35,886 bases of DNA from a virus (taxonomy: Duplodnaviria; Heunggongvirae; Uroviricota; Caudoviricetes): IMG/VR virus record IMGVR_UViG_3300031998_000037. The stretch is one strand, 5' to 3'. Each line of letters opens with the position of its first letter. The first letter of the stretch is position 1. The position numbers were made by a program, and so were the translations under genes. The notes under the pieces were generated by a model. The model ran no database searches. It was not told the DNA's origin and saw nothing but the letters and a program-made list of their open reading frames with translations. Positions 10,290-16,530 of this stretch are shown piece after piece.

Positions 10290-11297
10290 ATGTTCGCTGA
10301 AAAATGTCATGTGATTGATATTTCCCAAAAGGAAATTTCAGTGGAGTACGACTTTGATAGTCTTATTCCTGAAACCGAGTGTGACGACTTGGAAGAACTC
10401 GTTGAACTTGCTACAAAGCAAAAGCAAAGTCAGGGTATGGACGTTTTACCGCTTGACCTTTATAATCAAATGCTGGAAAATTGTCTTTCTCGCTCTGATT
10501 ACAGAACGTCATTCTGGCTAACCGCTATGAGCAATTTCGGATTGAGATATTCTGATGTCGTAAACCTGCGCCGTATTGATCTTATTGATGAAAACAACAG
10601 GCTTAGAGATAGGGTTCTATTACAAGAATCAAAGACTTCAAAACAGCGTGTGGTCTTTATAAATAAAGCTGTAAAAATGGCTCTTCTTATGCATCTATGG
10701 CATAGTGACATAACGCCTACGGATTATTTAATTACCTCAAACGGCAGACGAAAAGGTTATCTTATGGAAACTTACATTGACTCGAATGGCAAGGAAAAGG
10801 CTGTCAGGATCAATGGCAAGTACGTATATAAAACTGATGATAAAGGAAACAAAATTCCTAAGCCGTTATCACGTTCAAGTTCGGAAAAAATAATGAAGCA
10901 TATTATTATAGATAATCTTGGTGTTGCAATTGCAAATGATACACGTTGCAAAAATGTACATGATTGCATAGGAAAAATCTGTACTCATTCAATCCGTAAG
11001 CTTTACGGATGGGCGATTACAGAAGCCTTTATCAATCAGTTTGATAGTGACGAAGCATACGCACACGCCGCAGCTCTAAGTTTCTTGTCTCAGGATTACG
11101 GACATAGTTCTGAAGCGATGACATTGCATTATAGTAAGGATTTTGAGAACCAGAAGAAAAAAATTGTAATGAATATGAATATCGGATTATCAGTGCTGGA
11201 AAAGTATTTCAATCAAGAATACGAAAACAGAGGGGGAGGCAATAAGTGTCCCGTAATTACAAACGATGGTCAGACGACGAAAAGGAACACGCTTTAA
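10290..11297 (+). CDS. Tyrosine recombinase (catalytic domain intact, short N-terminus)
   Basis: R (GLRYSD), K (ESKT), HxxR (HSIRK), H (YGH), Y (LHY). Confidence 0.9.
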   Translation: MFAEKCHVIDISQKEISVEYDFDSLIPETECDDLEELVELATKQKQSQGMDVLPLDLYNQMLENCLSRSDYRTSFWLTAMSNFGLRYSDVVNLRRIDLIDENNRLRDRVLLQESKTSKQRVVFINKAVKMALLMHLWHSDITPTDYLITSNGRRKGYLMETYIDSNGKEKAVRINGKYVYKTDDKGNKIPKPLSRSSSEKIMKHIIIDNLGVAIANDTRCKNVHDCIGKICTHSIRKLYGWAITEAFINQFDSDEAYAHAAALSFLSQDYGHSSEAMTLHYSKDFENQKKKIVMNMNIGLSVLEKYFNQEYENRGGGNKCPVITNDGQTTKRNTL

Positions 11298-11944
11298 AAT
11301 TGGTTGATAAGTTTGGCGTAGAAAAGACTTCGAGAAAGTTAGGTATTGCTTCGTCAACTATTCACTACTGGAAATCGCAAAGAAATAAAAAAGAAGTTAA
11401 GAAAACCTCAATGATTATACAGCCGATTGATCCCAACAAAGAATTAAAGGACAATCCGAATATTACTTTTCAATCTCAGGGTGCAGACCGTCAATTTAAA
11501 CGTGGCGAGATTTACTATGTTTCGCAACGTCCTTCTGTTGGCGTTGAAATGGTGGCTGGCAGACCAGCCGTTATTGTATCGAATGACAGATTGAATGAAA
11601 ATTTAAGTTGTGTTGAGGTCGTTTATTTGACTACTAAAACAAAATGTATCGCACCTGAACATATAAGCATAAGATCATCTGGAGTCTTAGCAACAACTAT
11701 ATGTGAACAGATTACCACTATAGATAAAAGCAGAATAAGAGAATTTGTCGGGGAATGTACCCCTATAGAAATGAAGCTGATTAATAAGGCATTGTTGTAT
11801 TCACTTGGCTTAGGGGAATATGTCAAGGAAACAATGGGCGATGATGAAATAGTTGCAAGAATTTCATCTGTAGTTGCTGAAAGAAATGCCTATCAGGAAT
11901 TAACCGAACGTTTATTAGATCGGCTTATGGAGAAAAAGAAATAA
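11246..11944 (+). CDS. HTH-PemK/MazF-family endoribonuclease fusion
   Basis: N-terminal HTH (..KLGIASSTIHYWK); RGEIYYV..GRPAVIVSND..CEQITTIDKSRI MazF fold; C-terminal coiled coil. Confidence 0.85.
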   Translation: MSRNYKRWSDDEKEHALKLVDKFGVEKTSRKLGIASSTIHYWKSQRNKKEVKKTSMIIQPIDPNKELKDNPNITFQSQGADRQFKRGEIYYVSQRPSVGVEMVAGRPAVIVSNDRLNENLSCVEVVYLTTKTKCIAPEHISIRSSGVLATTICEQITTIDKSRIREFVGECTPIEMKLINKALLYSLGLGEYVKETMGDDEIVARISSVVAERNAYQELTERLLDRLMEKKK

Positions 11945-13626: not shown

Positions 13627-13700
13627 TGGGATATAGCCAAGTGGTAAGGCACAGGATTTTGACTCCTGCATCGTGAGTTCAAATCTCGCTATCCCAACCA
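13627..13700 (+). tRNA. tRNA-Gln(TTG)
   Basis: Canonical cloverleaf, TGGGATA/TATCCCA acceptor, anticodon loop TT-TTG-AC, encoded CCA. Confidence 0.95.
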
Positions 13701-13913: not shown

Positions 13914-14096
13914 TTAATACTCCGTTTCTACTATAGATTTTTGACCTGAGTAAGTCATAAACTGCTCATTCTTTTTAAAAAGTTCCTGTTCGTTGCCATA
14001 GTGACGAACCTCCTAATGCCCATCGTGGATGGGCAAATATGCCGATGAACCGTTCATGTCGGAAACTCGACACCATATCAGAAAGGAATGAATTAA

Positions 14097-14942
14097 ATGC
14101 CTTCAAAAAAAGAATTGATAGTAACTACAAATGATGGTGATATGCGAATTGTTGTAATGGATATCACTCCGCGAAAAGCAAGCGAATTGCTGGATAAAAA
14201 CACAAGCAATCGTAACCTGAGACAAGGCAGAGTTAGTATGTACGCATCTGAGATGAAAAATGGGAACTGGAAATCTAATGGTGTTCCAATAATCATTGGT
14301 GATGATGGCATTCTAAAAGATGGGCAGCATAGATTATGTGCTTGCGTAAAAGCAAATGCCACTATGAAAAATGCTGTAGTAATCTACTTGCCCAAAGCTC
14401 AAACAAATTGTTACGATATCGGAGCAACAAGAACTGCTGTAGATGTTGCAAAGTTTATGGGAATTGACGACCATCCATATTTAAGATCAAACGCTATATT
14501 TGCTTCTGTTAATCTTGCAATCACTGGAAGATCAGACGGTTATCGTTCTTACTCTAAAATCGGTCTTGTTAAAGAGATACAGAAACATCCAGAAGCTTGC
14601 GAATTTATATATTATAAGATACTATCAAATGGCGCAGCACAAAATCTAAAATTCCGCAAATCTGGATTTATGGCTGCAATATTCAATGCTTTTCTCGTAG
14701 GTTATGATAGAGAAAAGCTGGAGAGATTTTGTACTGTTCTTATTCATGGCATAGTAAGAGATGAAGCCGAAATTCCAATCATCAAGCTTAGGGATCAGAT
14801 TTTGAATATAAGTGCGCAGTCAAGAAGGGATAAGCTTGTTCTGTATTTCCAGACGCAAGCTGTACTTAAAGCCTACGAAATGAACAAAACAACTGTTGAT
14901 TTAAAAAAGGCAGATAAAGAATATTATTCCTATCCGAAATAA
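14097..14942 (+). CDS. ParB-like / DGQHR-motif protein
   Basis: ITP..A..LL..N..NR.L...V..YA..M..G.W....PII....G.LKDGQHRL. Confidence 0.75.
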   Translation: MPSKKELIVTTNDGDMRIVVMDITPRKASELLDKNTSNRNLRQGRVSMYASEMKNGNWKSNGVPIIIGDDGILKDGQHRLCACVKANATMKNAVVIYLPKAQTNCYDIGATRTAVDVAKFMGIDDHPYLRSNAIFASVNLAITGRSDGYRSYSKIGLVKEIQKHPEACEFIYYKILSNGAAQNLKFRKSGFMAAIFNAFLVGYDREKLERFCTVLIHGIVRDEAEIPIIKLRDQILNISAQSRRDKLVLYFQTQAVLKAYEMNKTTVDLKKADKEYYSYPK

Positions 14943-14952
14943 AGAAGTTATA

Positions 14953-15155
14953 TACACGCCTGATATTTGCGGTTATGATTATGTCCTTTCGTAGAATAAA
15001 AAGACATCTGATTAATGGTCTTAAAAATCGGACTTCCCTTTGCAAAATTCTGTCGCAACAAGAATATGCACAAAATAGTGCTTAAACTGGGTTGTAGCAA
15101 GGTTCTTTTTAATTTGAGTCCATCAATTCACATAACCGCAAATATCAGGCGTGTA
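14953..15155. repeat. Perfect 25-bp inverted repeat enclosing 153 bp
   Basis: TACACGCCTGATATTTGCGGTTATG at 14953-14977 and its reverse complement at 15131-15155. Confidence 0.95.
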
Positions 15156-15171
15156 GGAAAGGTTGATAATA

Positions 15172-16125
15172 ATGGCTATTATGAGCAAGCGCATTGATAT
15201 GCACGTAGCCGAAAAAATTCATATGGTCAATTCCGACAATATGGTACTGCTTGATAAATATATGATAGACTTATCATTGCGCGAAAGAGCAGAGACTACA
15301 CAATATGAATATTTGACCAGCTTAAAGCAATGGTTCGTATACATATTGGAGCATCAAGATAATCGTTCTGTATTGGACATGATTGATGATGACATTACAG
15401 AATTTCTTTTCTGGTGTAAAACGCAAGGGAACAATGCCGCCCGTATGCGTTTCCGCACATCTGCCATATCAGCGTTTTATAAATTTCTGCGTAAGAAAAA
15501 ATATATGACCGCCAACCCTACAGAGTTTATTGAGCCGCCGCGAAAAACAACTCCTATAATTACACAAACTTTCCTAACTTCGGAGCAAGTTGCCATAATG
15601 CGAGAACGCTTGATTGAATGCGGTGACTTGCAATTAAGACTGTATGCGATGTTGTCCTTGTCAACAATGGCAAGGCTCAACGCCATTGCTTCACTAAGAT
15701 GGGATCAAGTTGACTGGCAAGAATGCACTATTCGTAACGTTCTTGAAAAAGAAGGCAAGATCGTGGATATCTTTTTCAATGACGAGGTAAAGCAATTGTT
15801 ACTAAAGCTCAAAGAAGAACGTGAGGATAAGAAGAAAAACGACCACGGCTGGCTGTTTTATACAGGACGTTGTACAGACGAGAAGCATATCAGTAAAACG
15901 ACTTTAAGTGAATGGTGTAAGAGAATTGGTAGAATGATTGATGTACCTACGTTACATCCTCACGACTTCCGACATAGCGGAGCGACCATGCTGCGTAGGG
16001 CTGGTATGGATATAGAGGATGTATCCACATTGTTGAACCATGAGAGTACCAGCACAACTATGAAATATTATATAAAGCAAGACACAGACCGTATTAACAA
16101 CATAAAGAACAGGTTGAACTACTAA
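15172..16125 (+). CDS. XerC/XerD-like tyrosine recombinase
   Basis: Core-binding domain plus R (TMARLNA), K, HxxR (HDFRH), H (LNH), Y (MKYY). Confidence 0.92.
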   Translation: MAIMSKRIDMHVAEKIHMVNSDNMVLLDKYMIDLSLRERAETTQYEYLTSLKQWFVYILEHQDNRSVLDMIDDDITEFLFWCKTQGNNAARMRFRTSAISAFYKFLRKKKYMTANPTEFIEPPRKTTPIITQTFLTSEQVAIMRERLIECGDLQLRLYAMLSLSTMARLNAIASLRWDQVDWQECTIRNVLEKEGKIVDIFFNDEVKQLLLKLKEEREDKKKNDHGWLFYTGRCTDEKHISKTTLSEWCKRIGRMIDVPTLHPHDFRHSGATMLRRAGMDIEDVSTLLNHESTSTTMKYYIKQDTDRINNIKNRLNY

Positions 16126-16179
16126 GATTTTGGTTTAGGAACTCAGTTCCTTTTTCAAAAAAACAGAGGTGCATGAACT

Positions 16180-16530
16180 ATGAGTGAATGTAAAAGCTGC
16201 GAAAACTTTGATTTGTCAACCAACAAATGTTTAGTTGATGGCTCAAAGGGTTATGTAGATCAGAAATGTTTGCATTATAATTGCGATAAATATGTTGTTG
16301 GCAAATGGGGTACAAATGAAGATGAGCGTATACCATTTTATGATGACGGCAAAATCCAAGCAACAGTAGTTGTAAATTGGGGCGATAGTATACCGCCTTG
16401 TAAATATATGAACGATGATAAAGTGTGCAAGCTTTTTACTGGAATTTGCAAGCGGCGCGATTATGCGGAACTGCTTAAAATTCCTGTAAGATATTGCTGC
16501 CCTGAGTATGAATCATATGGAAAATCGTAA
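16180..16530 (+). CDS. Cys-rich hypothetical protein
   Basis: ORF track, GAGGTG SD. Confidence 0.7.
   Translation: MSECKSCENFDLSTNKCLVDGSKGYVDQKCLHYNCDKYVVGKWGTNEDERIPFYDDGKIQATVVVNWGDSIPPCKYMNDDKVCKLFTGICKRRDYAELLKIPVRYCCPEYESYGKS

Follow-up and report, generated by a model that had tools for sequence, protein, structure and literature searches.

Does a perfect inverted repeat directly upstream of a tyrosine recombinase gene mark a segment of DNA that is flipped by this recombinase, or do its two arms serve another purpose? The question arose from a stretch of 35,886 nucleotides (referred to as the window) of an IMG/VR virus record of 58,345 bp (IMGVR_UViG_3300031998_000037; CheckV completeness of 52%), in which a reading made from the sequence alone had proposed an autoregulatory phage inverton served by the neighbouring recombinase. 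The runs containing this sequence are bovine gut metagenomes, and the host is probably a clostridial Ruminococcus; a homolog of the gene upstream of the repeat is annotated in Ruminococcus sp.

Anatomy and surroundings of the inverted repeat

The two 25-bp arms noted in that reading are indeed 100% complementary (14953–14977 versus 15131–15155) and lie 153 nt apart. Together with the neighbouring genes and the subdivisions of the interior, the locus comprises the following features (strand is given where one applies):

14097–14942, plus strand: upstream gene of 281 aa (phrog_5931, function unknown), with its stop codon 10 nt before the left arm
14953–14977: left arm of the perfect 25-bp inverted repeat, TACACGCCTGATATTTGCGGTTATG, identical in L104 and L004–L007
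14978–15028: conserved left inner end of 51 nt, with 0/51 differences from L104 and 4/51 from L004
15024–15122, minus strand: remnant NUMOD4-HNH_3 open frame of 33 codons, in which the ..HILVATEFCKG.. segment before the HNH motif survives and the catalytic motif is deleted
15029–15110: variable middle, which differs from L104 at 14/82 positions and by a 33-nt indel, is replaced by unlike sequence in the L004 type and contains the weak promoter-like motif of the sequence-only reading
15111–15130: conserved right inner end of 20 nt, forming the right half of an imperfect inner stem, with 1/20 differences from L104 and 5/20 from L004
15131–15155: right arm, the exact reverse complement of the left arm (perfect 25-nt match)
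15156–15162, plus strand: Shine-Dalgarno-like GGAAAGG of the recombinase gene, as read from the sequence, abutting the right arm
15172–16125, plus strand: XerC-like tyrosine recombinase of 317 aa (Pfam Phage_integrase, 1e-26; SAM-like N-terminal domain)
16137–16155, plus strand: likely terminator downstream of the recombinase stop codon, judging from its sequence of a small hairpin, AGGAACT-CA-GTTCCT, and an ensuing T run; also kept in L104 and L106

Arm pairs of this kind are not expected by chance, even when up to three mismatches are allowed (0 expected; 100 dinucleotide-preserving shuffles). The repeat is the sole spaced perfect inverted repeat of at least 15 nt in the whole 58,345-bp record, which has one 14-nt pair elsewhere; a further arm-like sequence is absent from the record even with eight mismatches allowed. 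In wider searches, a 23-mer of the arm had no matches in viral contigs and none in JGI metagenome contigs, and a 19-mer had four scattered single matches in 185,579 genomes, which is about the chance expectation. Likewise, 21-mers of the left interior and of the middle each yielded no matches in viral contigs, and blastn of positions 14000–16200 against phage records gave matches that were confined to the recombinase gene, in the Clostridium phages c-st and D-1873.

The placement of the arms is equally exact. As had been pointed out, the right arm adjoins the Shine-Dalgarno sequence of the recombinase gene: it ends at 15155, GGAAAGG follows from 15156, and the ATG lies at 15172. When 14953–15155 is taken out, the stop codon of the upstream gene, 10 nt, the Shine-Dalgarno sequence and the ATG form a tight junction. 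The repeat is formed by both ends of a lineage-specific insert that sits exactly between the phrog_5931 stop codon and the recombinase ribosome-binding site.

Further upstream, a tRNA-Gln(UUG) gene (13627–13700) is located between a gene for a 349-aa protein and the phrog_5931 gene, and an open frame at 11246–11944 of the window has a PemK/MazF toxin domain preceded by an HTH (HTH_Tnp_1-like) region at the N-terminus. PemK-like genes beside the recombinase were also observed in other phages of the family (L101 and L102).

The insert exists independently of the recombinase

In the recombinase, all catalytic residues are conserved (R168, K193, H264, R267, H290 and Y300), and 2188 homologs were recovered, many of them on contigs of 100–157 kb. 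Approximately 100 loci with such homologs were fetched, about 90 of which (46–85% identical) lie outside the nearest relatives of the window. The arm was absent from all of these ~90 loci within ~1 kb of the recombinase gene, even at up to six mismatches, and in 0 of 45 scanned loci did an exact inverted repeat of at least 13 nt occur near the recombinase, a loopless palindrome in L008–L011 excepted. Loci with an 85% or 78% identical recombinase have just 52 or 15 nt, respectively, of unrelated sequence upstream of it. The loopless palindrome is a perfect one of 28 bp (L008:3964–3991, also in L009–L011), composed of ACTAAAATTTCTTT and its reverse complement. It is located 10 nt after the stop codon of the 85%-identical recombinase, precedes a T run and a promoter of consensus type, TTGACA...TATAAT, and is probably a terminator rather than a recombinase site.

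The element is known from the nearest relatives only, where it occurs in three lineages with interiors of 153, 186 and 249 nt. L004–L007, with a 95% identical recombinase, have the same arms around an interior of 249 nt, and contigs of run X5 carry this L004-type interior as well. L104, which was found via the upstream gene (protein 89% identical), has the same arms around an interior of 186 nt. In this locus the arms are kept exactly, although no more than ~34 nt at the start and ~30 nt at the end of the recombinase gene survive. This natural deletion (L104:3050–3110) fuses the start region, with its ATG changed, to the last ~30 nt of the gene, and retains the terminator hairpin. These data show that the insert exists independently of the recombinase and that the repeat and the recombinase have separate histories. 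They also add a caution for genome scans, namely that a perfect inverted repeat beside a tyrosine recombinase is insufficient to call an inverton.

The proposed autoregulatory inverton therefore found no support, since the repeat is not tied to the recombinase family and is perfect in the recombinase-deleted L104. Nor did related phages show the flipped interior that was looked for: the orientation-informative assemblies (window/X1, X3, L104, L004–L007 and X5, or eight samples and three lineages) were alike in 8/8 cases, and the conserved 51-nt end lay beside the left arm in every assembly with a flank. No strand-changing joint was present in the contigs of three DNA runs, bearing in mind that Logan contigs drop rare variants. 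One X3 contig (depth 3–4) crosses the left arm unbroken and without a branch. Breaks between X3 contigs at the right arm (14690–15155 and 15132–15477) were considered as alternative junctions and set aside, because a strain mixture explains them equally well.

The minus-strand promoter that had been suspected inside the interior, TTGCTA (15100–15095) followed at 17 nt by TATTTT (15077–15072), is present as described. However, it matches the consensus at 8/12 positions, is not listed by the promoter scan and falls in the non-conserved middle, and it is absent from the L004-type interior. Inside the interior, the promoter and terminator scan revealed nothing above background. Two other candidate signals were discarded: a promoter-like TATACA-17-TATGAT (9/12) over the left arm, facing right, was not relied on, and a core-type site in each arm (ATACACGCC, a 7-nt spacer and TGCGGTTAT; 6/9 dyad) was indistinguishable from chance.

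Inversion might also be driven by a tyrosine recombinase other than the adjacent one, such as the product of an integrase-like gene at 10290–11297 or a host enzyme in trans, and would in each case alter the leader of the recombinase operon. The anatomy suits such a switch, with 25-bp arms and a 153-nt interior in a leader position, 16 nt upstream of the ATG of a catalytically intact recombinase; invariant arms and conserved inner flanks are as expected of recombinase binding sites, and the probable host is a clostridial Ruminococcus. Moreover, the flagellar switch of Clostridioides difficile is served by a recombinase in trans and has its promoter outside the invertible segment (PMC7446863), so that neither the L104 deletion nor the absence of an internal promoter excludes an inverton, and we keep this rival under consideration. 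Against it stand the single orientation in eight assemblies from eight samples and three lineages, the X3 contig that passes through the left arm without a branch, and the ~90 homologous recombinase genes, including the 85% and 78% identical ones, without arm-like sequence within ~1 kb. In addition, the arms enclose a decaying gene whose length varies instead of a conserved regulatory segment, and pairing goes on inside the arms, where an inverton does not need it. All in all, we regard inversion, by whichever enzyme, as rather improbable. If an inverton driven in trans were nevertheless true, the locus would be a phase-variable phage switch, which would be the more interesting outcome.

The distribution of the insert also revealed what else can occupy its position. 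The element is absent from L105–L109, L155 and L156, all of which have the upstream gene, and the same slot is filled there, from 15 nt past the stop codon, by a TnpB/Cas12f-like gene or by other genes; this makes the slot a hot spot for mobile cargo. In no relative examined was the upstream gene joined directly to the recombinase gene, as an empty site would be.

In L105, L106 (3362–5232), L108, L155 and L156, the gene that replaces the repeat element encodes a Cas12f1-like_TNB (TnpB/Cas12f-like) protein of 412–417 aa. Downstream of this gene, L106 carries four 31-nt direct repeats, TTGCAACTTACTTATATGCATACAYTGTGAG, at a spacing of 67–70 nt and between two copies of an 85-nt repeat, an arrangement that looks like a phage-borne guide-RNA or mini-array cassette. 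Its last, degenerate repeat runs into ACATAACCGC and then TTTCGTAGAATAAAA (L106:4985–5010), which correspond to a 10-mer of the window arm and a 15-mer of the conserved left inner end, respectively (blast E 0.004–0.013).

The interior as a nuclease gene relic

The nature of the interior was most apparent in the L004 type, of which the minus strand holds a frame of 83 codons. This frame matches Pfam HNH_3 at 1e-4 with 22.3 bits, under the curated cut-off of 24.8, as well as HNH genes of Lactococcus phages, and an exhaustive HMMER search matched it to full-length proteins of 136–159 aa, mostly of the NUMOD4 plus HNH_3 type. Aligned to the NUMOD4-HNH_3 family, the L004-type relic gave an hhalign E of 6e-18 at a probability of 99% over 43 columns. 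The window relic aligns to the same family columns as the L004 type (hhalign E 9e-4), and the L104 relic does so with an E of 0.014, the window and L104 representing a diverged and more deleted allele than the L004 type. By these profile and protein comparisons, the interior is a decayed small NUMOD4-HNH homing-endonuclease gene, lying antisense to the surrounding operon.

Part of what the window has lost could be read from a contig of an RNA library. This contig (rec4, 522 nt) contains the equivalent of window positions 15028–15103 in foreign flanks (69/76 identical), and its loose end, in the frame of the relic, reads on into GAEVHHRNT, which is the VHHxN catalytic motif lost from the window. 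Furthermore, the FCKG codons differ between the window and the L004-type interior by synonymous changes only, indicating that both nuclease alleles were once functional. All three interior variants now carry stops and deletions, with no intact reading frame in any of them, showing that the nuclease gene is dead. The 58-kb record contains no intact HNH_3 gene, and neither a nuclease-free hairpin nor an intact nuclease cassette with these arms was found.

The sporadic distribution of the insert between conserved genes of close relatives is as for free-standing HNH homing-endonuclease genes. In the hhalign comparison, similarity to the nuclease family does not reach the conserved left end, and the idea that this end is the C-terminal coding part of the nuclease was accordingly dropped. 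The arms may thus either have arrived together with the nuclease gene or have been invaded by it. Among 25 distinct distant nuclease homologs in viral contigs, none had a flanking repeat of at least 13 nt, and end-to-end pairing across these homologs was mildly better than in controls.

A motif ATATT(T)GCGG, which is the core of the window arm, was observed just upstream of distant NUMOD4-HNH genes in two other lineages (L112:2461–2482, and ~50 nt upstream in L122/L123). This motif could serve the nuclease family as a common promoter or target, or the resemblance could be due to chance. Together with their counterparts at the L106 array end and near the HNH genes of L112–L117, these arm-like motifs (E 0.004–0.15) were taken as suggestive and given no further weight.

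Constraint, folding and likeness to known systems

Sequence divergence around the insert provided a yardstick for its conservation. Third codon positions differ at 79/282 (28%) in the upstream gene between the window and L104, and at 88/318 (28%) in the recombinase gene between the window and L004. The arms, by comparison, showed 0/50 differences in each of the three pairwise comparisons, and we calculated that fifty unchanged positions at 28% neutral divergence have a probability of ~7e-8 for one pair. Between the window and L104, the ends differ at 1/121 positions versus 14/82 in the middle (Fisher p 1.5e-5). Since its own middle has diverged, the element is not simply young. Judged by these comparisons, the 25-bp arms and the inner ends of ~51 nt on the left and 20 nt on the right are under constraint, and the middle is not.

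The manner in which the arms are conserved bears on what recognizes them. Across the three variants they never vary, with neither G-U pairs nor compensatory changes, and such invariance of sequence is no less compatible with a DNA site recognised by a protein than with a stem in RNA. Readings in which the arms are transposon ends or recombinase sites are therefore kept alive. The same invariance would suit paired binding sites of a DNA-looping protein, such as a repressor, partition or replication protein. However, the record contains the arm sequence at no other site, and relatives with all of the neighbouring genes lack the arms, which renders looping sites the most improbable of the explanations that we weighed.

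Alternatively, the arms might be the terminal inverted repeats of a tiny mobile HNH cassette or of a MITE-like derivative, with ends that serve as DNA sites for its mover. The insert is sharply delimited between two genes, its slot accepts other mobile genes as well, and its exact ends are perfect 25-nt repeats, in the manner of terminal inverted repeats. Conservation is confined to its ends, the middle having decayed or been lost, and the differing interiors of 153, 186 and 249 nt can be read as internal-deletion derivatives, as in Ac/Ds-type families. TA at both ends is compatible with a target duplication of the IS630/Correia type, although this TA is also part of the palindromic repeat, and an arm-like GATATTGCGGTTATGG lies ~20–40 nt upstream of the start of distant nuclease homologs in L112–L117 (E of only 0.15). 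On the other hand, the element is present as a single copy in the 58-kb record, every copy lies at the same orthologous site, and neither an empty site nor an unambiguous target duplication was found. The arm 19-mer is at chance level in 185,579 genomes and the 23-mer is absent from viral and JGI metagenome contigs. To our knowledge, there is no transposase for such ends, nor do HNH enzymes act on terminal repeats, which we also count against mobility. We consider a mobile cassette unlikely, though the likeliest of the rival explanations.

Folding predictions extend the pairing well beyond the arms. In the window, the element has an MFE of -69.8 kcal/mol (z = -6.0 versus shuffles), and the L004 element a z of -5.1, values that largely restate the repeat. 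Both strands are predicted to fold as a rod, in which a 25-bp stem (28 bp on the minus strand) leads to an asymmetric internal loop with a small hairpin and then to an inner stem (imperfect, ~14 pairs) that ends in a variable tip. The left inner end (14978–15028) supplies the left half of the inner stem as well as the small hairpin, ATGTC...GACAT, whose minus-strand version is the stronger one. The basal architecture is common to all three variants and to both strands, the minus strand being slightly more stable in each. On that strand the former start ATG of the nuclease, 7 nt inside the right arm, falls in the predicted inner stem. The inner pairings listed in the sequence-only reading (GGACTT/GAGTCC and GCAC/GTGC) are found as an imperfect extension of the arm stem, and its alternative of a rod-like fold is nearer to the explanation favoured by the evidence than its inverton is. 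That reading missed that the interior is a decayed HNH gene. Among the three variants, the inner stem has two one-sided changes, one of which (C-to-T) retains a G-U pair on the plus strand only.

Transcription of the region was approached via a rumen metatranscriptome (RNA run X24), in which contigs cover the interior in at least three sequence variants; these contigs show neither strand nor ends. One of the X24 variants has 83 unrelated letters in its middle, which occur in no fetched locus. RNase III leaves a 2-nt 3′ overhang, and contig ends at 14976 and 15134 would give such an overhang. We nevertheless rejected the X24 contig ends (starts at 14976, ends at 15134 or 15139) as signs of RNA processing, as contig ends are not RNA ends. 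That X24 has no contigs covering the outer arms or the upstream gene was not counted as evidence either.

It could be argued from these contigs that the interior is a stand-alone structured RNA gene that acts in trans, for instance in regulation or anti-defence; the arms would then be the base of its stem or a signal for its processing, and the homology to nucleases a fossil. Three interior variants are represented in the metatranscriptome, at a contig depth above that of the recombinase contig (a weak indication), the rod has a conserved base and a variable tip, and the C-to-T difference in the inner stem keeps its G-U pair on the plus strand only. However, Rfam gave no match inside the element at E values up to 10, the contigs cannot show strand, ends or level and such libraries can contain DNA, the middle tolerates both sequence changes and the loss of 100 nt, and nothing similar occurred in the viral, genome or JGI metagenome contigs that were scanned. 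We thus hold a trans-acting RNA gene to be very unlikely.

Because the repeat encloses a gene relic, persists without the recombinase and was never found flipped, a hairpin-forming element is likelier than a recombinase-driven switch. We infer that the conserved ends work together as a hairpin, most likely in RNA, and our favoured explanation, to which we assign a probability of roughly 45%, is a conserved hairpin-forming cis element that brackets a dead homing-endonuclease gene and probably acts in RNA. In RNA transcribed across the insert from either side, the arms would snap into a duplex of 25–28 bp, continued by the imperfect inner stem. This duplex would loop out the insert of 150–250 nt and so restore the proximity of the upstream stop codon to the ribosome-binding site downstream. 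It would also offer a double-stranded target of the kind that RNase III cuts, directly upstream of the next ribosome-binding site, and on the nuclease-sense strand the former start codon would be buried in the stem, comparable to the hairpin silencing of homing-endonuclease genes in T-even phages. By looping out, by providing an RNase III target and by burying the start codon, the element would hence insulate the operon from a selfish insert, without any switching by inversion.

If this leading reading is true, a phage operon can tolerate a selfish insert by virtue of perfectly pairing ends, the ends of such an insert stay under selection long after the death of its nuclease, and insulation at the RNA level is added to the known ways in which homing-endonuclease genes and their hosts coexist. 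A further-reaching and doubtful extension is that the hairpin is a functional module in itself, a perfect long-range clamp that substitutes structurally for an intron, tolerates an antisense nuclease gene and is needed even after decay of the latter; the insert would then stand for a class of hairpin-bracketed self-insulating cassettes.

Among known systems, the free-standing phage HNH genes (NUMOD4 plus HNH_3, of the I-HmuI/T4 Mob type) resemble the element in that they are small, lie between conserved genes, occur sporadically and are often decayed. In contrast to these genes, the relic described here is antisense to its operon and its repeat is still constrained after the death of the nuclease, whereas distant homologs have no such repeats. 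In T-even phages, RNA structures sequester the ribosome-binding sites of homing-endonuclease genes (PMC2988022). The likeness to these hairpin-silenced genes lies in the former start codon inside a predicted stem; silencing there involves a local hairpin over the ribosome-binding site, whereas here a perfect 25-bp repeat surrounds the whole gene.

The flagellar switch of C. difficile spans 154 bp and is served by a recombinase in trans, with a promoter outside the switch and regulation in the leader (PMC7446863). This switch and the RecV invertons are similar to the present element in size (154 bp versus 153 nt), in being flanked by inverted repeats, in their position in an operon leader and in a clostridial host. 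However, the C. difficile switch depends on a tyrosine recombinase, whereas the repeat described here does not co-occur with the recombinase family. Both orientations of the C. difficile switch are documented and its repeats are imperfect, as opposed to one orientation in assemblies and perfect repeats here, where the interior is moreover a gene relic of variable length.

The Correia elements of Neisseria and the MPME elements of mycobacteriophages are MITE-like, and their long terminal repeats form hairpins once transcribed. The insert resembles them in its length of ~200–300 bp, its terminal repeats of ~25 bp that start with TA, its intergenic location, its internal-deletion variants and the potential for an RNase III-type stem in read-through RNA. 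In these families, however, there are multiple copies, target duplications are clear and empty sites exist, whereas the element described here is known as one copy at one site, with arms that were seen in no other searched genome.

Finally, RNase III processing hairpins of the T7 R1.1 type and lambda sib occur between the genes of polycistronic phage mRNAs, and the element shares with them a long double-stranded stem between two cistrons, directly upstream of a ribosome-binding site. Those are local hairpins of ~20 bp with small loops or bulges, whereas the stem predicted here closes a loop of 150–250 nt that contains a dead gene.
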